A stretch of DNA of 44,895 nucleotides, from the IMG/VR virus record IMGVR_UViG_2851982317_000005. One strand, 5' to 3'. A program made the translations under genes and the position numbers. Source of the DNA: a virus. Its lineage: Duplodnaviria; Heunggongvirae; Uroviricota; Caudoviricetes. Every line of letters starts with the position of its first letter. The first letter of the stretch is position 1. The notes beneath the pieces were generated by a model. That model was not told where the DNA came from and did not search any database. It saw nothing but the letters and a program-made list of their open reading frames with translations. Shown piece after piece: positions 9,868-44,895 of the stretch.

Positions 9868-10545
9868 ATGTCCATCATTTTTAATGGACACTATCGTATG
9901 AAACACCGGACCTGGATCACTGAAGCTTTACGTCTTCACTTTGAAGAACATTTACCCCGGGTTGTGGCCGGGCGTCGCCTGGGTGTACCAAAATCAACAG
10001 TTTGTAGTATGTTCGTGCGCTTTCGGAGAGCTGGCCTTTCGTGGCCTTTGCCCGCAGGCATGTCGGAGCAGGAACTTGATGCCTGCCTTTACGGACAATT
10101 TTCCACGGTACCAGTCGTACGTCCTGAAAGCACCGTTATATCCGAAGCCCCCGTGGTAAAAAAACGTCCCCGGCGGCCCAACTTCCCTTATGAGTTTAAA
10201 ATCGCCTTAGTGGAGCAGTCACTGCAGCCCGGAGCCTGTGTGGCGCAGATCGCCCGGGAAAACGGAATCAACGATAACCTGCTCTTCAACTGGCGCCATC
10301 AATACCGGAAAGGTGGCCTGCTGCCTTCCGGAAAAAATATGCCGGCACTGCTTCCCGTGACGTTAACGCCGGAGCCGGATAATAAAATCCCGGCCCCCGC
10401 ACAGGAACCAGAGCAGATAAATACACCGTCCGACAGTCTGTGTTGTGAGCTGGTTCTGCCGGCCGGAACTCTCAGGCTTAAAGGTAAACTGACGCCGGCG
10501 TTATTACAGACACTTATCCGCGAAATAAAAGGGAGCAGCCACTGA
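9868..10545 (+). CDS. tnpA: IS66-family accessory protein TnpA (orfA)
   Basis: Contains the conserved YEFKIALVEQSLQPGACVAQIARENGINDNLLFNWRHQY HTH region; ORF start may be N-terminally extended. Confidence 0.75.
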   Translation: MSIIFNGHYRMKHRTWITEALRLHFEEHLPRVVAGRRLGVPKSTVCSMFVRFRRAGLSWPLPAGMSEQELDACLYGQFSTVPVVRPESTVISEAPVVKKRPRRPNFPYEFKIALVEQSLQPGACVAQIARENGINDNLLFNWRHQYRKGGLLPSGKNMPALLPVTLTPEPDNKIPAPAQEPEQINTPSDSLCCELVLPAGTLRLKGKLTPALLQTLIREIKGSSH

Positions 10546-10892
10546 TGATATCTCTCCCTGCAGGTTCGCGTATCTGGCTGGTTGCAGGTATCACCGATAT
10601 GCGAAATGGCTTTAACGGCCTGGCATCAAAAGTTCAGAACGTCCTGAAGGATGACCCGTTCTCCGGACACCTGTTCATCTTCCGCGGACGCCGGGGTGAC
10701 CAGATAAAAGTGTTGTGGGCTGACAGTGACGGACTGTGCCTCTTCACCAAACGCCTGGAGCGGGGCCGCTTCGTCTGGCCAGTCACCCGTGACGGCAAGG
10801 TGCACCTTACTCCGGCTCAGTTATCCATGCTTCTTGAAGGTATCAACTGGAAGCACCCGAAACGAACGGAACGCGCTGGAATCCGCATATAA
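10545..10892 (+). CDS. tnpB: IS66-family TnpB (orfB)
   Basis: 115-aa ORF MISLPAGSRIWLVAGITDMRNGFNGL... typical IS66 Orf2; overlaps orfA stop. Confidence 0.85.
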   Translation: MISLPAGSRIWLVAGITDMRNGFNGLASKVQNVLKDDPFSGHLFIFRGRRGDQIKVLWADSDGLCLFTKRLERGRFVWPVTRDGKVHLTPAQLSMLLEGINWKHPKRTERAGIRI

Positions 10893-10911
10893 CCCGTTGT
10901 AAAGTGAGGAT

Positions 10912-12483
10912 ATGGACACCTCACTTGCTCATGAGAACGCCCGCCTGCGGGCACTGTTGCAGACGCAACAGGACACCATACGCCAGATGGCTGAATACAA
11001 CCGCCTGCTCTCACAGCGGGTGGCGGCTTATGCTTCTGAAATCAACCGGCTGAAGGCGCTGGTTGCGAAACTGCAGCGTATGCAGTTCGGTAAAAGCTCA
11101 GAAAAACTTCGTGCAAAAACCGAACGGCAGATACAGGAAGCACAGGAGCGAATCAGCGCACTTCAGGAAGAAATGGCGGAAACGCTGGGTGAGCAATATG
11201 ACCCGGTACTGCCATCCGCCCTGCGCCAGTCTTCAGCCCGTAAACCGTTACCGGCCTCACTTCCCCGTGAAACCCGGGTTATCCGGCCGGAAGAGGAATG
11301 CTGTCCTGCCTGTGGTGGTGAACTCAGTTCTCTGGGATGTGATGTGTCAGAGCAACTGGAGCTTATCAGCAGCGCCTTTAAGGTTATTGAAACACAACGT
11401 CCGAAACAGGCCTGTTGCCGGTGCGACCATATCGTGCAGGCACCAGTACCTTCAAAACCCATTGCACGCAGTTATGCCGGAGCGGGGCTTCTGGCCCATG
11501 TTGTCACCGGGAAATATGCAGACCATCTGCCGTTATACCGCCAGTCAGAAATATACCGTCGTCAGGGAGTGGAGCTGAGCCGTGCCACACTGGGGCGCTG
11601 GACAGGTGCTGTTGCTGAACTGCTGGAGCCGCTGTATGACGTCCTGCGCCAGTATGTGCTGATGCCCGGTAAAGTCCATGCTGATGATATCCCCGTCCCG
11701 GTCCAGGAGCCGGGCAGCGGTAAAACCCGGACAGCCCGGCTGTGGGTCTACGTCCGTGATGACCGTAACGCCGGTTCACAGATGCCCCCGGCGGTCTGGT
11801 TCGCGTACAGTCCGGACCGGAAAGGTATCCATCCACAAAATCACCTGGCCGGTTACAGCGGTGTGCTTCAGGCCGATGCTTACGGTGGTTACCGGGCGTT
11901 ATACGAATCCGGCAGAATAACGGAAGCCGCGTGTATGGCTCATGCCCGGAGAAAAATCCACGATGTGCATGCAAGAGCGCCCACCTACATCACCACGGAA
12001 GCCCTGCAGCGTATCGGTGAACTGTATGCCATCGAGGCAGAGGTCCGGGGCTGTTCAGCAGAACAGCGTCTGGCGGCAAGAAAAGCCAGAGCCGCGCCAC
12101 TGATGCAGTCACTGTATGACTGGATACAGCAACAGATGAAAACACTGTCGCGTCACTCAGATACGGCAAAAGCGTTCGCATACCTGCTGAAACAGTGGGA
12201 TGCACTGAACGTGTACTGCAGTAATGGCTGGGTGGAAATCGACAACAACATCGCAGAGAACGCCTTACGGGGAGTGGCCGTAGGCCGGAAAAACTGGATG
12301 TTCGCGGGTTCCGACAGCGGTGGTGAACATGCGGCGGTGTTGTACTCGCTGATCGGCACATGCCGTCTGAACAATGTGGAGCCAGAAAAGTGGCTGCGTT
12401 ACGTCATTGAACATATCCAGGACTGGCCGGCAAACCGGGTACGCGATCTGTTGCCCTGGAAAGTTGATCTGAGCTCTCAGTAA
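10912..12483 (+). CDS. tnpC: IS66-family transposase (orfC)
   Basis: 523-aa ORF with N-terminal coiled-coil/leucine zipper, CxxC zinc-finger region and DDE-type core typical of IS66 transposases. Confidence 0.85.
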
Positions 12484-35652: not shown

Positions 35653-38600
35653 ATGGGTAAAGGCAGCAGTAAGGGGCATACCCCGCGCGAAGCGAAGGAC
35701 AACCTGAAATCCACGCAGTTGCTGAGTGTGATTGATGCCATCAGTGAAGGGCCGATTGAAGGTCCGGTGGATGGATTAAAAAGCGTGCTGCTGAACAGTA
35801 CGCCGGTGCTGGACACTGAGGGGAATACCAACATCTCCGGTGTCACGGTGGTGTTCCGGGCAGGTGAGCAGGAGCAGACTCCGCCGGAGGGATTTGAATC
35901 CTCCGGCTCCGAGACGGTGCTGGGTACGGAAGTGAAATATGACACGCCGATCACCCGGACCATCACGTCTGCAAATATCGACCGTCTGCGCTTTACCTTC
36001 GGTGTGCAGGCACTGGTGGAAACCACCTCAAAGGGGGACAGGAATCCGTCGGAAGTCCGCCTGCTGGTTCAGATACAACGTAACGGTGGCTGGGTGACAG
36101 AAAAAGACATCACCATTAAGGGCAAAACCACTTCACAGTATCTGGCCTCGGTGGTGGTGGATAACCTGCCGCCGCGCCCGTTTAATATCCGGATGCGCAG
36201 GATGACGCCGGACAGCACCACAGACCAGCTGCAGAACAAAACGCTCTGGTCGTCATACACCGAAATTATCGATGTGAAACAGGGCTACCCGAACACGGCA
36301 CTGGTCGGCGTGCAGGTGGACTCGGAGCAGTTCGGCAGCCAGCAGGTGAGCCGTAATTATCATCTGCGCGGGCGCATTCTGCAGGTGCCGTCGAACTATA
36401 ACCCGCAGACGCGGCAATACAGCGGTATCTGGGACGGAACGTTTAAGCCAGCATACAGCAACAACATGGCCTGGTGTCTGTGGGATATGCTGACCCATCC
36501 GCGCTACGGCATGGGGAAACGTCTTGGTGCGGCAGATGTGGATAAATGGGCGCTGTATGTCATCGGCCAGTACTGCGACCAGTCGGTGCCGGACGGTTTT
36601 GGCGGCACGGAGCCGCGCATCACCTGTAATGCCTACCTGACCACGCAGCGTAAGGCGTGGGATGTGCTCAGTGATTTCTGCTCGGCGATGCGCTGTATGC
36701 CGGTATGGAACGGGCAGACGCTGACGTTCGTGCAGGACCGACTATCAGATAAGGTGTGGACCTATAACCGCAGTAATGTGGTGATGCCGGATGATGGCGC
36801 GCCGTTCCGCTACAGCTTCAGCGCCCTGAAGGACCGCCATAATGCCGTTGAGGTGAACTGGATTGACCCGAACAACGGCTGGGAGACGGCGACAGAGCTT
36901 GTTGAAGATACGCAGGCCATTGCCCGTTACGGTCGTAATGTCACGAAGATGGATGCTTTTGGCTGTACCAGCCGGGGGCAGGCACACCGCGCCGGGCTGT
37001 GGCTGATTAAAACTGAACTGCTGGAGACGCAGACCGTGGATTTCAGCGTGGGTGCTGAAGGGCTTCGCCATGTACCGGGCGATGTCATTGAAATCTGCGA
37101 TGATGACTATGCCGGTATCAGCACCGGTGGTCGCGTGCTGGCGGTGAACAGCCAGACCCGGACGCTGACGCTCGACCGTGAAATCACGCTGCCATCCTCC
37201 GGTACCACGCTGATAAGCCTGGTTGACGGAAGTGGTAATCCGGTCAGCGTGGAGGTCCAGTCCGTCACCGACGGACTTAAGGTGAAAGTGAACCGGGTTC
37301 CTGATGGCGTTGCAGAATACAGTGTGTGGGGGCTGAAGTTGCCGACGTTGCGTCAGCGCCTGTTCCGCTGTGTGAGTATCCGTGAGAACGATGACGGCAC
37401 GTATGCCATCACTGCCGTGCAGCATGTACCGGAAAAAGAAGCCATCGTGGATAACGGGGCGCACTTTGACGGCGACCAGAGCAGCACGGTGAATGGTGTC
37501 ACGCCGCCAGCGGTGCAGCACCTGACCGCCGAAGTCACCGCAGACAGCGGGGAATATCAGGTGCTGGCGCGCTGGGACACGCCGAAGGTGGTGAAGGGCG
37601 TGAGCTTCCTGCTCCGTCTGACCGTAACAGCGGATGACGGCAGTGAGCGGCTGGTCAGCACAGCCCGGACGACGGAAACCACATACCGCTTCACGCAACT
37701 GGCGCTGGGGAACTACAGGCTGACAGTCCGGGCGGTAAATGCGTGGGGGCAGCAGGGCGATCCGGCGTCGGTATCGTTCCGGATTGCCGCACCGGCAGCA
37801 CCGTCGAGGATTGAGCTGACGCCGGGCTATTTTCAGATAACCGCCACGCCGCATCTTGCGGTTTATGACCCGACGGTACAGTTTGAGTTCTGGTTCTCGG
37901 AAAAGCGGATTACCGATATCAGGCAGGTTGAAACCACAGCACGCTATCTTGGCACGGCGCTGTACTGGATAGCCGCCAGTATCAATATCAAACCGGGCCA
38001 TGATTATTACTTTTATATCCGCAGTGTGAACACCGTTGGCAAATCGGCATTCGTGGAGGCTGTCGGTCGGGCGAGCGATGATGCGGAAGGTTACCTGGAT
38101 TTTTTCAAAGGAGAAATCGGGAAAACACATCTGGCCCAGGAGTTGTGGACGCAGATTGATAACGGTCAGCTTGCGCCGGACCTGGCTGAAATCAGGACGT
38201 CCATTACGAATGTCAGCAATGAAATCACGCAGACCGTCAATAAAAAACTGGAAGACCAGAGTGCGGCAATCCAGCAGATACAGAAAGTTCAGGTTGATAC
38301 AAATAATAACCTGAACAGCATGTGGGCCGTGAAACTGCAGCAGATGAAGGACGGACGCCTTTATATTGCGGGTATCGGAGCCGGTATTGAGAATACGCCA
38401 GCAGGTATGCAGAGTCAGGTGCTTCTGGCTGCTGACCGGATTGCGATGATTAATCCTGCGAATGGCAACACAAAGCCGATGTTTGTTGGTCAGGGCGATC
38501 AGATATTCATGAACGACGTGTTCCTGAAACGCCTGACGGCTCCGACCATTACCAGCGGCGGTAATCCTCCGGCATTTTCCCTGACACCGGACGGGCGGCT

Positions 38601-39132
38601 GACGGCGAAAAATGCCGATATCAGCGGTAACGTGAATGCGAATTCCGGGACGCTCAACAACGTCACGATTAACGAGAACTGTCGGGTTCTGGGAAAATTG
38701 TCCGCCAACCAGATTGAAGGCGATCTCGTTAAAACAGTGGGCAAAGCTTTCCCCCGGGACTCCCGTGCACCGGAACGGTGGCCATCAGGGACCATCACCG
38801 TCAGGGTTTATGACGATCAGCCGTTTGACCGGCAGATTGTTATTCCGGCGGTGGCATTCAGCGGCGCTAAACATGAGCGGGAGAATAACGATATTTATTC
38901 GTCATGCCGCCTGATAGTACGGAAAAACGGTGCTGAAATTTATAACCGTACCGCGCTGGATAATACGTTGATTTACAGTGGTGTTATTGATATGCCTGCC
39001 GGTCACGGTCACATGACACTGGAGTTTTCGGTGTCAGCATGGCTGGTAAATAACTGGTATCCCACAGCAAGTATCAGCGATTTGCTGGTTGTGGTGATGA
39101 AGAAAGCCACTGCAGGCATCACGATTAGCTGA
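35653..39132 (+). CDS. Host specificity protein J (central tail fibre / tip attachment)
   Basis: 1159-aa ORF, N-terminus [24 protein letters not shown] typical of lambda J. Confidence 0.9.
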
Positions 39133-39199: not shown

Positions 39200-39799
39200 A
39201 TGCGTAAATTATGTGCTGTTATTTTGTCCGCAGTAGTCTGGCAGGTCGCCGCTGCTACGCCAGCGAGTGCAGCAGAACATCAGTCCACGCTGAGCGCGGG
39301 GTATCTCCATGCCTCGACGAACGTTCCCGGTAGTGATGATCTGAACGGGATTAACGTGAAATACCGTTATGAGTTTACGGACGCGCTGGGGCTGATTACG
39401 TCCTTCAGTTATGCCAATGCTGAGGATGAGCAAAAAACGCGCTACAGCGATACCCGCTGGCATGAAGATTCCGTGCGTAACCGCTGGTTCAGCGTGATGG
39501 CGGGGCCGTCTGTACGCGTGAATGAATGGTTCAGCGCGTATGCGATGGTGGGTGTGGCTTACAGCCGTGTGTCGACTTTCTCCGGGGATTATCTCCGCGT
39601 AACTGACAACAAGGGGAAAACGCACGATGTGCTGACCGGAAGTGATGACGGTCGCCACAGCAACACGTCTCTGGCGTGGGGGGCTGGCGTGCAGTTTAAT
39701 CCGACCGAATCCGTGACCATTGACCTTGCTTATGAAGGTTCCGGTAGTGGCGACTGGCGAACGGATGCATTTATTGTTGGTATCGGATACCGTTTCTGA
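39200..39799 (+). CDS. lom: Lom-like outer membrane protein (Ail/Lom/PagC family beta-barrel)
   Basis: 199-aa ORF with signal peptide, alternating beta-strand pattern and C-terminal aromatic residue (IGYRF). Confidence 0.8.
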   Translation: MRKLCAVILSAVVWQVAAATPASAAEHQSTLSAGYLHASTNVPGSDDLNGINVKYRYEFTDALGLITSFSYANAEDEQKTRYSDTRWHEDSVRNRWFSVMAGPSVRVNEWFSAYAMVGVAYSRVSTFSGDYLRVTDNKGKTHDVLTGSDDGRHSNTSLAWGAGVQFNPTESVTIDLAYEGSGSGDWRTDAFIVGIGYRF

Positions 39800-39950: not shown

Positions 39951-42900
39951 ATGACAGTAAAAATTTCTGGCGTGCTTAAAGATGGCACAGGAAAACCAGT
40001 ACAGAACTGCACCATTGTGCTGAAGGCCAGACGAACCAGCAGCACGGTGGTGGTGAACACGGTGGCCTCTGAAAATCCGGATGAAGCCGGACGTTACAGC
40101 ATGGATGTTGAGCATGGTCAGTACAGCGTCACCCTGCTGGTTGAAGGTTTTCCGCCTTCACATGCCGGGACCATTACCGTCTATGAAGGTTCCAGACCAG
40201 GTACGCTGAATGATTTTCTCGGTGCCATGACGGAGGATGATGTCCGACCGGAGGCACTGCGCCGCTTTGAGCAGATGGTGGAAGAGGTGTCACGTAACGC
40301 CTCCGCGGTTGCACAGAATACGGCAGCCGCGAAAAAATCAGCCAGCGATGCCAGTGCATCAGCCAGCGAGGCGGCAACTCATGCAACCGATGCTGCAGCC
40401 TCAGCACGTGCCGCCAGCACGTCAGCCGGACAGGCCGCGTCGTCGGCTCAGTCAGCGTCTTCCAGCGCAGGAACGGCATCGACAAAGGCCCGTGAAGCAG
40501 CAAAAAGTGCTGCTGCTGCAGAGTCATCAAAAAGCGCGGCAGCTACCAGCGCCAGTGCCGCGAAAACGTCAGAAACGAATGCCGCAGCATCACAAAAATC
40601 GGCAGCCACTTCTGCATCCACAGCGACCACGAAGGCGTCAGAAGCTGCCACCTCGGCACGGGGTGCGGCGGCCTCAAAAGAGGCAGCGAAATCTTCAGAA
40701 ACGAATGCATCATCAAGTGCCAGTAGTGCAGCTTCCTCGGCAACGGCGGCAGGAAATTCCGCGAAGGCGGCAAAAACGTCCGAGACGAACGCTAAGTCTT
40801 CTGAAACAGCAGCGGGACAGAGCGCCTCAGCTGCGGCAGGTTCAAAAACAGCGGCTGCATTATCTGCCAGTGCCGCGTCAACAAGTGCCGGGCAGGCCTC
40901 AGCCAGTGCCACCGCCGCCGGAAAATCGGCAGAAAGCGCCGCATCATCCGCTTCAACAGCCACAACGAAGGCTGGCAAAGCCACTGAGCAAGCCACTGCA
41001 GCAGCGAGGTCTGCTTCTGCAGCAAAAACCTCTGAAACAAATGCAAAGACTTCAGCAGACAATGCTGCTTCCTCTAAGGCGGCAGCCGCATCGTCAGCCA
41101 GTTCAGCGGCGTCATCGGCATCATCTGCGTCTGCTTCAAAAGATGAGGCGACCAGACAAGCGTCAGCAGCGAAAGGTAGTGCCACGACAGCAACAACGAA
41201 AGCATCAGAGGCGGCAGGCAGTGCGACGGCTGCATCTCAGAGCAAAGTTGCTGCTGAATCCGCGGCAACGCGCGCCGAGACAGCAGCAAAACGGGCAGAG
41301 GATATTGCATCCGCCGTAGCGCTGGAGGATGCGAGCACGACGAAAAAGGGGATAGTACAGCTCAGCAGTGCAACAAACAGCACCAGTGAAAAGCTGGCGG
41401 CAACGCCAAAGGCAGTTAAAACTGTTAAAGATAGTTCAGTTCAAAAAACTGGCGACACAATGGGAGGGCAGTTAAAAATCAGCACGATAAATGCTCTTCG
41501 AATATTCAACCAAGCCTTTGGCCTTATTTTTAGGCGTTCCGAAGATCATCTTCATCTTATTCCGACTAATGAAGGGGAGGGGGAAAATGGAGACATCGGT
41601 TCATTAAGACCATTCTCTATAAACTTAAGATCAGGGTTGGTGTCCATCGGTAATGGACTAAAAGTTGGTGGTAGTGTTACTGGTAATTTGACCGGAAACG
41701 CAGATACTGCGACCAAGATCAAGACAGCACGTAAGATTGGGGGCGTGGCATTTGATGGATCGGCAGATATCAACTTGCCTGGAGTCAACGCTACCGGTAA
41801 TCAAAACACTACAGGTAATGCTGCGACCGCCACGAAACTTCAGGCAGCCAGAACGATTAACGGTGTGTCATTTGATGGTAGTGCAAATATCACATTGACC
41901 CCTTCAAATATTGGGGCATTGGCATTAACTGGAGGGACTCTTTCAGGTGGTTTAACTGCTGCTGGTGAGGTTATTTCAAGGTCAGCAAATGGTCTGCGTA
42001 TTGCCTATGGCAACTATGGATTCTTTATCCGAAATGATGGATCAAACACATATTTTATGTTGACAGATTCGGGTAACAGTCTTGGTACGCACAATAGCTT
42101 AAGGCCGTTTATAATTAGTAACCATACTGGCAATGTTACAATTGCAACTAAATTAAACGCGAGTGGTGGTATCACTGGATCTTTATCGGGTAATGCAAGC
42201 ACAGCAACCAAATTGCAAACTGCAAGGACAATTAACGGCGTAAAATTTGACGGCTCGGCAAATATTGAAGCGTTTCCGCCAGGTGTTCCGCTGCCGTGGC
42301 CATCAGATACACCACCTGCAGGTTATGCAATCATGCAGGGGCAGACGTTTGATAAGGCAGCATATCCGAAACTGGCTATTGCCTATCCTTCAGGTGTTAT
42401 TCCAGATATGCGCGGCTGGACAATCAAGGGCAAACCCGCCAGTGGCCGGGCCGTATTGTCTCAGGAACAGGACGGCATTAAATCGCACACCCACAGCGCC
42501 AGCGCATCCAGTACGGATTTAGGGACGAAAACCACATCGTCGTTTGATTACGGCACTAAATCCACGAATAACACCGGGGCGCATACGCACAGTCTGAGTG
42601 GCTCTACGGGGTCTGCCGGTGTTCATACTCATGGTAATGGTATTCGTTGGCCAGGAGGCGGCGGTTCTGCGTTAGCATTTTATGATGGCGGTGGGTTCAC
42701 TTATGTCCAGAATTCACAGTATCAAGTAAGCCCGGAGACTTCTTCCTATAGATCGTATTATCAACGTATTCAGACACAGTCAGCAGGTGCTCATACCCAC
42801 TCGCTGTCTGGTACTGCAGCAAGTTCTGGCGCACATGCACATACTGTAGGTATTGGTGCGCATACGCACTCCGTTGCGATTGGTTCACATGGACACACCA

Positions 42901-42977
42901 TCACCGTTAACGCTGCGGGTAACGCGGAAAACACCGTCAAAAACATCGCATTTAACTATATTGTGAGGCTTGCATAA
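39951..42977 (+). CDS. stf: Side tail fibre protein with long Ala/Ser-rich repeat region and C-terminal HxH-repeat domain
   Basis: 1008-aa ORF; reiterated ...KTSETNA.SS.... segments; C-terminal GAHTHS/HAHTV repeats typical of E. coli phage tail fibres. Confidence 0.85.
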
Positions 42978-43561
42978 TGGCATTCAGAATGAGTGAACAA
43001 GCACGGACCATAAAAATTTATAATCTGCTGGCCGGAACTAATGAATTTATTGGTGAAGGTGACGCATATATTCCGCCTCATACAGGTCTGCCAGCAAACA
43101 GTACCGATATTGCACCGCCAGATATTCCGGCTGGCTTTGTGGCTGTTTTCAACAGTGATGAGGCATCGTGGCATCTCGTTGAAGACCATCGGGGTAAAAC
43201 GGTTTATGACGTAGCGTCAGGGGACGAGTTATTTATTTCTGAACTCGGTCCGTTACCGGAAAATGTTACCTGGTTATCGCCGGAAGGGGAGTTTCAGAAG
43301 TGGAACGGCACAGCCTGGGTGAAGGATACGGAAGCAGAAAAACTGTTCCGGATCCGGGAGGCGGAAGAAACAAAAAACAACCTGATGCAGGTAGCCAGTG
43401 AGCATATTGCGCCGCTTCAGGATGCTGCAGATCTGGAAATTGCAACGGAGGAAGAAACCTCATTGCTGGAAGCCTGGAAAAAGTATCGGGTGTTGCTGAA
43501 CCGTGTTGATACATCAACTGCACCTGATATTGAGTGGCCTACGAACCCTGTCAGGGAGTAA
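42977..43561 (+). CDS. tfa: Tail fibre assembly protein (Tfa)
   Basis: 194-aa ORF overlapping the stf stop; typical Tfa N-terminus ([48 protein letters not shown]). Confidence 0.85.
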
Positions 43562-43610
43562 TCATTGGGATTATGCCGCAGCACGTCTTAAGCAAGAACG
43601 TGCTGCGGTT
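43403..43610. repeat. Direct repeat copy 1 (3' end of tfa plus downstream hairpin)
   Basis: About 200 bp repeated with roughly 90 percent identity at 44452-44660. Confidence 0.7.
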
Positions 43611-43615
43611 GGATG

Positions 43616-44284
43616 CTATTTTTTCCCTGAAGCGGAAAACATTACTACAGTACCTTGAACCTTGGTTTTAACATTCTCGAAATGCTCTGAGAGTATATGT
43701 GTTAAGCCTTCTTCGGAATCTTTTGTGTTTGAAAAGATGCCTTTCTGATTGTAAATGCGCATCAGTTTTTGACCGAAGCTATTGTGCACAACTCCATCGC
43801 CAAGAATTGTGGCTCCGTATAGAGTTCCATCGTCAGTTAAGGCCTGCGCCGCATTGCGTATTACACAGCTTTTTGTAGTTATATTTCCAGGCAGGCAGTG
43901 AAGAAGGTAAAACATGGAAATGGAATCAAATTGACCATGTAACGCCGCGGGATAAGGTTCAAAAACATCATGGCTAATTTTATGTTTAATTTTTGATTCC
44001 CCAGCCCTTGTAGATGCCGCGTTCAGGCTAGCTTCGTTCAAATCCATTAAAGATATCAGACTACTCTCAGGTACGTGAGTAAGGTAAAACCCAGTTCCAA
44101 CACCAATATCCAGATGGTTGTTACCTAAATGTTCCAGAAAGTGTGGAAGAAGGTGTTCCTTTGTAGGACATCCCCATGCAAGCCAATTTGATACTCCCAA
44201 AACCCACCAGTCATAAAGCTTTAGGGTAAGTGGTGTGTAAATTTTAGCCCCATCATCTGTGTTTTTTTTCATTAATTTCACCAT
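43616..44284 (-). CDS. Class I SAM-dependent methyltransferase (non-DNA type), substrate unknown
   Basis: 222-aa ORF with motif I LDIGVGTGFY, acidic post-I residue (LMDLN) and motif III-like LTDDGTLYG; no DPPY/NPPY DNA-methyltransferase motif; AT-rich; weak ribosome-binding site. Confidence 0.6.
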   Translation of the reverse strand: MVKLMKKNTDDGAKIYTPLTLKLYDWWVLGVSNWLAWGCPTKEHLLPHFLEHLGNNHLDIGVGTGFYLTHVPESSLISLMDLNEASLNAASTRAGESKIKHKISHDVFEPYPAALHGQFDSISMFYLLHCLPGNITTKSCVIRNAAQALTDDGTLYGATILGDGVVHNSFGQKLMRIYNQKGIFSNTKDSEEGLTHILSEHFENVKTKVQGTVVMFSASGKK

Positions 44285-44340
44285 GTTATAGTTTTATTTG
44301 TGAATTAAATCAATTATGGCGATGAATTACAAGGGGTTAA

Positions 44341-44610
44341 ATGCTGCCGCAGCATAGCGATATTGAAATAGCCTGGTATGCTTCGATACAGCAGGAGCCG
44401 AATGGCTGGAAGACCGTCACCACACAGTTCTACATCCAGGAATTCAGTGAGTATATTGCGCCACTGCAGGATGCTGTAGATCTGGAAATCGCAACGGAGG
44501 AAGAAAGATCGTTGCTGGAGGCATGGAATAAATATCGGGTATTGTTGAATCGTGTTGATACATCAACTGCACCTGATATTGAGTGGCCTGCAAATCCTGT
44601 CAGGGAGTAA
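44341..44610 (+). pseudogene. Chimeric/partial tfa: unrelated N-terminus fused to a Tfa C-terminal 50 aa (duplicate of tfa 3' end)
   Basis: C-terminal [52 protein letters not shown] is near-identical to the Tfa C-terminus. Confidence 0.5.
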
Positions 44611-44660
44611 TCATTGGGATTATGCCGCAGACACGTCGTATACAGGAACGTGCTGCGGTT
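44452..44660. repeat. Direct repeat copy 2 (tfa 3' end plus hairpin)
   Basis: See copy 1. Confidence 0.7.
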
Positions 44661-44895
44661 AGTTTGTGAGCTTTCGATAGTGGTTGTTATTTTTGCCCTT
44701 ATTTGTTCCGGAGGCCATGGTTCAATGGTCCGTCTGCCCCCTGTGGTGATGTCAGCAAAATCAGCCACTGCGCGAACCACAATAGCCCGGGAAGATGCTG
44801 AAGATCACCAGGTAAAGCTGTCAGCGCAGAAACTGGAAGAACTGCTCGCATCAATGGTTAAGGATGAGGTTGATCGCAATGATGGGATTTATTGA
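44614..44895 (+). CDS. Hypothetical small protein at window edge
   Basis: 93-aa ORF ending exactly at the window end; start uncertain. Confidence 0.2.
   Translation: MGLCRRHVVYRNVLRLVCELSIVVVIFALICSGGHGSMVRLPPVVMSAKSATARTTIAREDAEDHQVKLSAQKLEELLASMVKDEVDRNDGIY

Follow-up and report, generated by a model that had tools for sequence, protein, structure and literature searches.

The right end of the viral sequence IMGVR_UViG_2851982317_000005, a stretch of 44,895 nucleotides (nt) that is called the window here, raises the question of how a methyltransferase gene, ybcY, came to lie on the minus strand between two direct copies of the 3' end of tfa, the side-tail-fibre assembly gene, and of what its product does in a lambdoid prophage. 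The best explanation, and very probably the right one, is that ybcY is the cargo of a moron cassette which was built through two sequential joints, has the repeats as homology arms, and delivers a small-molecule methyltransferase, YbcY. On sequence comparison, this is the already known intact ybcY cassette of lambdoid Escherichia coli prophages, which is annotated in strain K-12 and in thousands of genomes and phage records. As a discovery it carries little weight, since the K-12 prophage DLP12 is already annotated with ybcY, the genes around it and both tfa ends; as a locus it offers a clean worked example of how lambdoid cargo may be assembled and moved: two illegitimate joints, both dated, come first, and homologous exchange and loss then proceed through the resulting repeats. 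The positions of all features are collected in Table 1.

Lambdoid morons such as lom and bor, a concept of Hendrix and colleagues, are extra genes which are expressed from the prophage. Like them, ybcY is optional among conserved genes, deviates in guanine-plus-cytosine (GC) content, is oriented on the opposite strand, and shows promoter-like sequences and an adjacent hairpin; unlike the classic morons, it lies between 226-nt direct repeats that derive from the 3' end of a neighbouring gene. The 222-amino acid (aa) class I S-adenosylmethionine (SAM)-dependent methyltransferase that the original prediction had placed on the minus strand, between tfa and a chimeric open reading frame (ORF), is recovered by both Pfam and PHROG 2132, and the observation that a single gene of this kind is visible in the window was correct. 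PHROG 2132 matches the ORF with an E value of 3.9e-155, residues 5-222 aligning to profile positions 1-218 of 218. The GC content is 40.7% for ybcY, 41% for the cassette core and 26.8% for the spacer upstream of the gene; the window as a whole has 50.4%, and tfa, stf and J have 48-56%. At the same position, close relatives either have or lack the gene: it is absent from lambda, HK629, HK630, many other relatives and a sibling prophage integrated in ompW, which agrees with the earlier view of ybcY as non-core cargo. In the phage collection, lambda, HK629/630 and others without ybcY match the tfa 3' end only, and at least 14 records contain the gene, including 2G7b, ev243, the PhiR series, Turner, Kati and 204576; the label YbcY is given in the record of PhiR26_1. 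Of 5,426 complete E. coli genomes, 3,835 (71%) contain the ybcY core, always at 95% identity or more and with a median of one copy per genome, which places the gene among the commonest prophage-borne enzymes of E. coli.

The prophage DLP12 of K-12 (b0561-b0563) shows the genes tfaD-ybcY-tfaX in the same order, on the same strands and with both joints of the window; positions 43123-44587 are 97% identical to it over 1,465 nt, joints included, and ybcY itself shows 98.9% DNA identity to K-12 strains. The DLP12 map runs tfaD, ybcY (a pseudogene, on the opposite strand), tfaX, appY and ompT. Two differences separate the loci: ybcY is frameshifted in DLP12 and intact in the window, and copy 2 of the repeat is cut short in K-12 at about 44587 and followed by appY-ompT, whereas the window retains the whole of it, hairpin included, ahead of a tail-fibre remnant and the ompW attR. 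In the literature searched, ybcY is mentioned only within lists of genes or as a landmark on maps, and no paper was found on methyltransferase morons associated with tfa in lambdoid phages. A 98.9% identical E. coli ybcY with the K-12-like length of 728 nt also stands in a Bacillus thuringiensis CT-43 plasmid record (HM037272.1, 53375-54102), which suggests E. coli cloning-host DNA in that record.

The two repeats align over 226 and 227 nt in a single gapped alignment with 200 matches (88.1%; BLAST E 2e-79), a similarity far beyond chance, and the repeat finder gives them as two pairs with a one-base offset, 43385-43581 with 44434-44630 (89%) and 43582-43610 with 44632-44660 (86%). No third copy is present in the window. 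Direct repeats of about 200 base pairs (bp) had been claimed with a start at 43403; they are indeed related on alignment, but copy 1 starts at 43385. Similarly, the hairpin with an 11-bp stem that had been described on both sides is perfect in copy 1, while the one of copy 2 carries a bulged A. The coding part of copy 1 consists of the final ~58 codons of tfa. Hairpin 1 folds with -28.5 kcal/mol (z-score -4.2) on the plus strand and -25.4 kcal/mol (z-score -4.5) on the minus strand, starts 7 nt past the ybcY stop codon, and is a putative shared terminator or 3'-end stabiliser of tfa and ybcY.

The Rfam family RF02111 (IS009) matches copy 1 at 43320-43518 with 225.2 bits, above the gathering score of 117, and copy 2 at 44364-44567 with 112.5 bits, slightly under it. 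These scores would suit a functional small-RNA gene present in two copies, instead of a by-product of recombination at tfa, but such a gene is extremely improbable here: the matched stretch is part of the tfa coding sequence, in sense orientation, and outside the joint codons most of the changes between the copies are silent (11 synonymous against 8 non-synonymous codons, with 3 of the 8 at the joint). Since the match coincides with the coding sequence of tfa, membership of the family says little on function. What RF02111 recognises in this sequence is the sense-strand coding 3' end of tfa, and IS009 may not be an independent RNA gene. IS009 is among the RNAs excluded from one RNA-seq and Ribo-seq analysis, ribosome footprints being expected on them.

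The chimeric ORF, the equivalent of tfaX in K-12, shows what lies at the second repeat. Codons 1 to ~31 come from orfX, the name used here for the native 79-aa gene of the PHROG 3893 family that is paired with ybcY, and codons ~32-89, in frame with them, are the 3' end of another tfa allele. Residues 3-37 match PHROG 3893, and the N-terminal ~35 residues are not Tfa-like. Caudo_TAP matches residues 31-86 only (profile positions 75-130 of 131), which falls short of a full-length Tfa. The duplication of the Tfa C-terminus at the end of this ORF, noticed earlier, is borne out, its final 54 residues showing 5 differences. The N-terminus is 53% identical to a 79-aa ORF of Klebsiella phage Kp4882-3 and 39% identical to gp28 of HK225. 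A DinI-like N-terminus, suggested by the annotation of phage Eeyore and by tblastn, was rejected; the HK225 homologue is gp28, which adjoins dinI. Native orfX is present at full length (79-99 aa) and without flanking tfa repeats in Citrobacter freundii, Kp4882-3 and HK225, and in HK225 its divergent partner is dinI and not ybcY. In the C. freundii contigs (loci L024 and L026), ybcY is divergent from an intact orfX of 79-80 aa, with an S24-peptidase-like pseudogene after orfX and dinI on the other side, and the C. freundii YbcY shares 89% protein identity with that of the window. No Pfam domain was found in the full-length orfX product of Citrobacter or the Klebsiella phage. As a side observation, orfX recurs beside genes of the SOS type (S24-peptidase/UmuD-like genes and dinI): in Kp4882-3 (locus L013, 3004-3571) it is followed by an ORF of ~130 aa which looks S24-peptidase/UmuD-like by eye, and in C. 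freundii (locus L024, 4307-4941) by a broken ORF with a weak match to Pfam Peptidase_S24 (E ~1e-3).

The comparison with C. freundii delimits the unit that was brought in. Positions 43604-44427 are 91.5% identical to it over 825 nt, and the homology ends at both inner borders of the repeats, so the core is a piece of a ybcY-orfX module held between two novel joints. Joint 1 (~43604-43611) lies at the 3' edge of hairpin 1, where the tfa hairpin gives way to the 3' end of ybcY. Joint 2 (~44427-44444) connects orfX codon ~31-35 to tfa codon ~137 in frame. Few bases are shared at the joints, ACCGCA at the left one and ACACAG/CAGG at the right one. Phage Ayreon contains joint 1: positions 43416-43651 are contiguous in it at 95.8% identity, a stretch that spans the hairpin and the final 36 nt of ybcY. 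Positions 43652-44310 are missing from Ayreon, and its orfX runs on in native sequence past 44427 to at least residue 50, without a switch to tfa, although a stop codon interrupts it. Because Ayreon has joint 1 with a native orfX, joint 1 would predate joint 2.

From these genome comparisons a recombination history in three steps can be proposed. A ybcY-orfX module, from a bacterium or a prophage island, would have been joined right after the tfa hairpin by illegitimate recombination. Later, orfX would have been broken at about codon 31-35 and fused, with the frame kept, to another tfa allele at about its codon 137, and this second event would have imported another tfa 3' end with its hairpin, 12% diverged from copy 1; the use of a different allele would account for the divergence between the copies. 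The earlier suggestion of acquisition or exchange at the tfa 3' end holds in part: the repeats behave as substrates of recombination, with varied neighbours and a hybrid tfa end in a sibling prophage, but they are probably not the signature of one insertion, orfX being fused to a second tfa allele through joints of different times.

A single event is an alternative origin. A template switch on microhomology, at a replication fork stalled by the tfa hairpin, could have copied ~0.8 kilobases (kb) of ybcY-orfX and re-entered upstream in tfa, which would produce insert and 226-nt duplication together, the 12% divergence being left to later conversion. The joints coincide with the two ends of the duplicated unit and show the few shared bases given above, and a strong hairpin stands at the left one, as such an event would leave them; however, Ayreon has joint 1 without joint 2 and with native orfX beyond 44427, and the 26 of 226 positions at which the copies differ are scattered over the whole unit, as expected of different alleles, which makes the single event unlikely. 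Two further candidates were rejected. Insertion of a transposable element was discarded with no inverted repeats in 42900-44895, a flanking duplication that is 226 nt of gene sequence, and no transposase in the cassette. An invertible tail-fibre segment, considered for the DNA invertase near the cassette in Turner and HK225, was discarded with the tfa copies in direct orientation and inverted repeats absent.

Returning to the two-joint cassette, its repeats would act as homology arms that move with it: crossing over within either copy would bring in new tail-fibre modules or right-arm DNA, and a crossover between the copies would delete the cassette. The contexts on both sides vary. On the left, a full tfa is present in the window and PhiR26_1, another fibre gene in 2G7b (match from 43441), and an invertase region in Turner, where the match begins exactly at the hairpin (43576). 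On the right, the window shows complete copy 2, the DUF4376 remnant and attR, K-12 a truncated copy 2 with appY-ompT, and the phages a truncated copy 2 with hydrolase-ompT after it. When the predicted product of a deletion was used as the query, single-piece, full-length matches were obtained in the three top-ranked genomes. One of them, NZ_CP043406, contains the sibling ompW prophage, whose lom protein is the same and whose tfa is 99.5% identical in its 5' part; the cassette is absent and tfa runs straight into the DUF4376 remnant. Of the sites in its tfa 3' end that tell the copies apart, 18 toward the 5' side resemble copy 1, and 10, mainly in the last ~70 nt and the hairpin, resemble copy 2. 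This hybrid is the pattern expected if an inter-repeat crossover had deleted the cassette. The same prophage (locus L022, 5324-6153) has genes of a Rha-family regulator and the ash family between the DUF4376 remnant and the ompW attR, which are absent from the window-type prophage.

As to the protein, fold and SAM-binding motifs point to a stand-alone, single-domain class I SAM-dependent methyltransferase. Pfam Methyltransf_12, 23, 25 and 11 match above their cut-offs. Motif I reads D59-I-G-V-G-T-G65, and G61, G63 and G65 are invariant in 23 homologues (56-89% identity), as are D81 (MDLN) and D106 (HDVF); by their position in the predicted strands, D81 at the end of beta-2 and D106 after beta-3 would bind the ribose and the adenine, respectively. 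The same 23 homologues share an invariant signature specific to YbcY (YDWWVL..SN..AW.C.T, LLHCLPG, GATILG and YN.KGIFSN..D). M5 is invariant and is the first residue in most of 22 aligned homologues, the PHROG profile begins at it, and GGTGA lies upstream, so the true start is probably M5 at 44272 and the likely product has 218 aa. The AlphaFold2 (AF2) model is a single domain with a predicted local distance difference test (pLDDT) score of 89.6, and its seven-stranded beta-sheet matches solved methyltransferases in structure searches.

No single family stands out among the relatives; the check on the subfamily that had been proposed gave the class I fold through the AF2 model. No NCBIfam equivalog model reaches its cut-off for YbcY (CpaM, RquA and PmtA are sub-threshold, E ~1e-3), and the PDB profile search ranks JHAMT, the juvenile hormone acid O-methyltransferase, first (E 8e-6) and UbiG next (9e-4); assignment by sequence was rejected with these sub-threshold models and weak phmmer and profile matches. 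Class I methyltransferases acting on small molecules, JHAMT (7ec0), UbiG (4kdr) and bacterial PmtA (8ys9), show 12-21% identity to YbcY, and NodS (3ofj), BelI/CysG (9fce/9g0k) and MM_2633 (3dtn) likewise. Its nearest relatives methylate oxygen or nitrogen in carboxylates, quinols, lipid head groups and natural products. By analogy with them, the substrate is most probably a small molecule that is methylated on oxygen or nitrogen. Of the small-molecule, protein or RNA substrates that were suggested before, the first is favoured and the other two are less favoured.

The role in defence raised in the original prediction found no support. A defence, counter-defence or nucleic-acid-modifying methyltransferase (of DNA, transfer RNA or ribosomal RNA) that protects lysogen or phage is quite improbable: PADLOC-DB gives zero YbcY matches at E <= 0.01, the best neighbours in sequence and fold act on small molecules, and orthologues are solitary chromosomal genes in many Enterobacterales. 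In agreement with the original prediction, YbcY is on sequence features not a DNA methyltransferase; a regular-expression search found neither [DNS]PP[YFW] nor PCQ, the motifs of N6, N4 and C5 DNA methylases, and the single domain of 218 aa has no extra domain and no room for target recognition. A nuclease or partner gene is lacking too, since the prophage ends beside ybcY. For the same reason ybcY has no downstream partner genes, and the module does not continue past the window end, where the next features are the DUF4376 pseudogene, the ompW attR and yciE.

Outside phages, YbcY homologues with 55-68% identity stand alone on the chromosomes of Salmonella, Enterobacter, Yersinia, Erwinia, a Pasteurellaceae genome and Shewanella. 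No neighbour gene is conserved across six chromosomal loci; this and a Klebsiella plasmid copy without an obvious operon led to abandoning genome context as a guide to function. A homologue with 64-67% identity is found on hundreds of Klebsiella plasmids (603 records), mostly large and non-mobilizable; in the K. pneumoniae IncFIB plasmid CP035906.1 (locus L014, 7002-7655) it lies ~2 kb from rmpD and near iroN. Our reading is that ybcY is a bacterial stand-alone enzyme gene acquired as phage cargo, with a role of the host metabolic type and not in phage development.

The ratio of non-synonymous to synonymous substitution (dN/dS) of ybcY against its orthologues is 0.11-0.22, and at the sequence level the gene is under purifying selection. 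It is therefore very unlikely that the cassette is decaying junk, with ybcY and the chimeric ORF non-functional and kept through linkage to common prophage remnants. The frameshifted copy of K-12, the fragmentary state of the neighbouring orfX, tfa copy 2 and DUF4376 gene, and the deletion of most of ybcY in Ayreon would fit decay, but no other cluster comes close in size to that of the intact 222-aa form (6,589 member sequences), RefSeq annotates the gene as intact in nearly all genomes sampled, and the residues of the SAM-binding motifs are all invariant. Intact ybcY is often kept in otherwise decayed prophages.

In the lysogen, ybcY is probably transcribed from its own promoter, its orientation being against late phage transcription; on the sequence, an own promoter together with a terminator is plausible. 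The spacer contains the hexamers TTAACC-16-CATAAT on the minus strand and TTGATT-17-TATAAC, a pair that is listed for K-12. Promoter-like hexamers are no commoner in it than in shuffled sequence, and some overlap start codons. Constitutive RpoD promoters with an 'HNS' mark are listed for the K-12 ybcY-tfaX spacer from genomic systematic evolution of ligands by exponential enrichment (PMC3946193).

Several points weigh against the moron cassette with a small-molecule methyltransferase. Both hexamer pairs lie so near the start codons that the leaders would be very short. On the ybcY strand, hairpin 1 lacks a U-tract, and the terminator scan did not report it. A handful of genomes serve to order the events and give them a direction: Ayreon might have re-acquired native orfX sequence, and NZ_CP043406 could be a gene-conversion mosaic and not a deletion product. 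Finally, the literature search found no experimental paper on YbcY function.

With regard to the benefit of the cargo, YbcY may tentatively be considered a lysogenic-conversion enzyme that methylates a host metabolite, an envelope lipid, a quinone or an incoming toxic compound, although this is doubtful. If true, the benefit to the lysogen would explain why ~70% of E. coli genomes and hundreds of Klebsiella plasmids keep an intact, strongly conserved ybcY. Since K-12, the strain used for most biochemistry, has only the pseudogene, methylation of a metabolite or lipid by YbcY could have been missed. It is speculative that TfaX, the fusion of orfX' with the Tfa C-terminus, is expressed from the divergent promoter and interferes with the assembly of tail fibres by competing phages.

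Table 1. Positions of the ybcY cassette, its flanking repeats and the neighbouring genes in the window.
Feature	Position	Strand	Evidence or remark
ybcY, predicted class I SAM-dependent methyltransferase	43616-44284	-	Longest ORF 222 aa; Pfam, PHROG 2132, AF2 model
Unique cassette core, 823 bp (ybcY, divergent spacer, first ~31 orfX codons)	43611-44433		41% GC
AT-rich 56-bp spacer between divergent ybcY and chimeric ORF	44285-44340		Promoter-like hexamers in both directions
Chimeric ORF, K-12 tfaX equivalent, 89 aa	44341-44610	+	PHROG 2341, E 4e-61
Repeat copy 1, tfa 3' end and hairpin 1, 226 nt	43385-43610	+	Repeat finder, alignment
Repeat copy 2, tfa 3' end and hairpin 2, 227 nt	44434-44660	+	88% identity to copy 1
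Hairpin 1, CCGCAGCACGT...ACGTGCTGCGG, 11-bp perfect stem, between convergent tfa and ybcY	43576-43608		Both strands folded
Hairpin 2, one bulged A	44625-44658		-24.1 kcal/mol, z-score -2.8
tfa, side-tail-fibre assembly, 194 aa, intact	42977-43561	+	Pfam Caudo_TAP full length, E 1.9e-44
stf	39951-42977	+	
lom	39200-39799	+	
J	35653-39132	+	Intact 1,159-aa ORF
DUF4376 tail-fibre pseudogene remnant, last feature before the prophage right end	44707-44895	+	RefSeq annotation in NZ_CP024257

The window contains a lambda-type integrase at the end opposite to ybcY, and in identical genomes the 3' ompW fragment (attR) starts ~300 bp outside the other end; from this arrangement the window is an almost complete lambdoid prophage integrated in ompW. 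The 1.5 kb surrounding ybcY is 100% identical to several E. coli chromosomes. In NZ_CP024257, the tfa fragment is followed by the DUF4376 pseudogene, the 3' ompW fragment and yciE-yciF-yciG-trpA. An ORF of 93 aa (44614-44895) stops at the last base of the window and matches PHROG 1141 and 7703 at residues 34-93. The tfa product corresponds to WP_000885577.1 by RefSeq annotation in an identical genome. RefSeq also lists a 45-aa 'hypothetical protein', WP_001309429.1, at 43534-43671 on the plus strand, which crosses the hairpin, is antisense to the 3' end of ybcY, and looks like a spurious call.

The prophage of NZ_CP024257 (loci L004, 1255-4733, and L023, 12707-15933) shows gpJ and the tape-measure gene annotated as frameshifted pseudogenes. 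J is intact in the window, so the window comes from a different and possibly less decayed copy of the prophage. An IS66-family element (a TnpA-like helix-turn-helix protein and a 523-aa DDE_Tnp_IS66 transposase) is located in the early region of the prophage, at 9868-12483 of the window, and the NZ_CP024257 prophage has IS66 and IS21 copies at positions other than this one.

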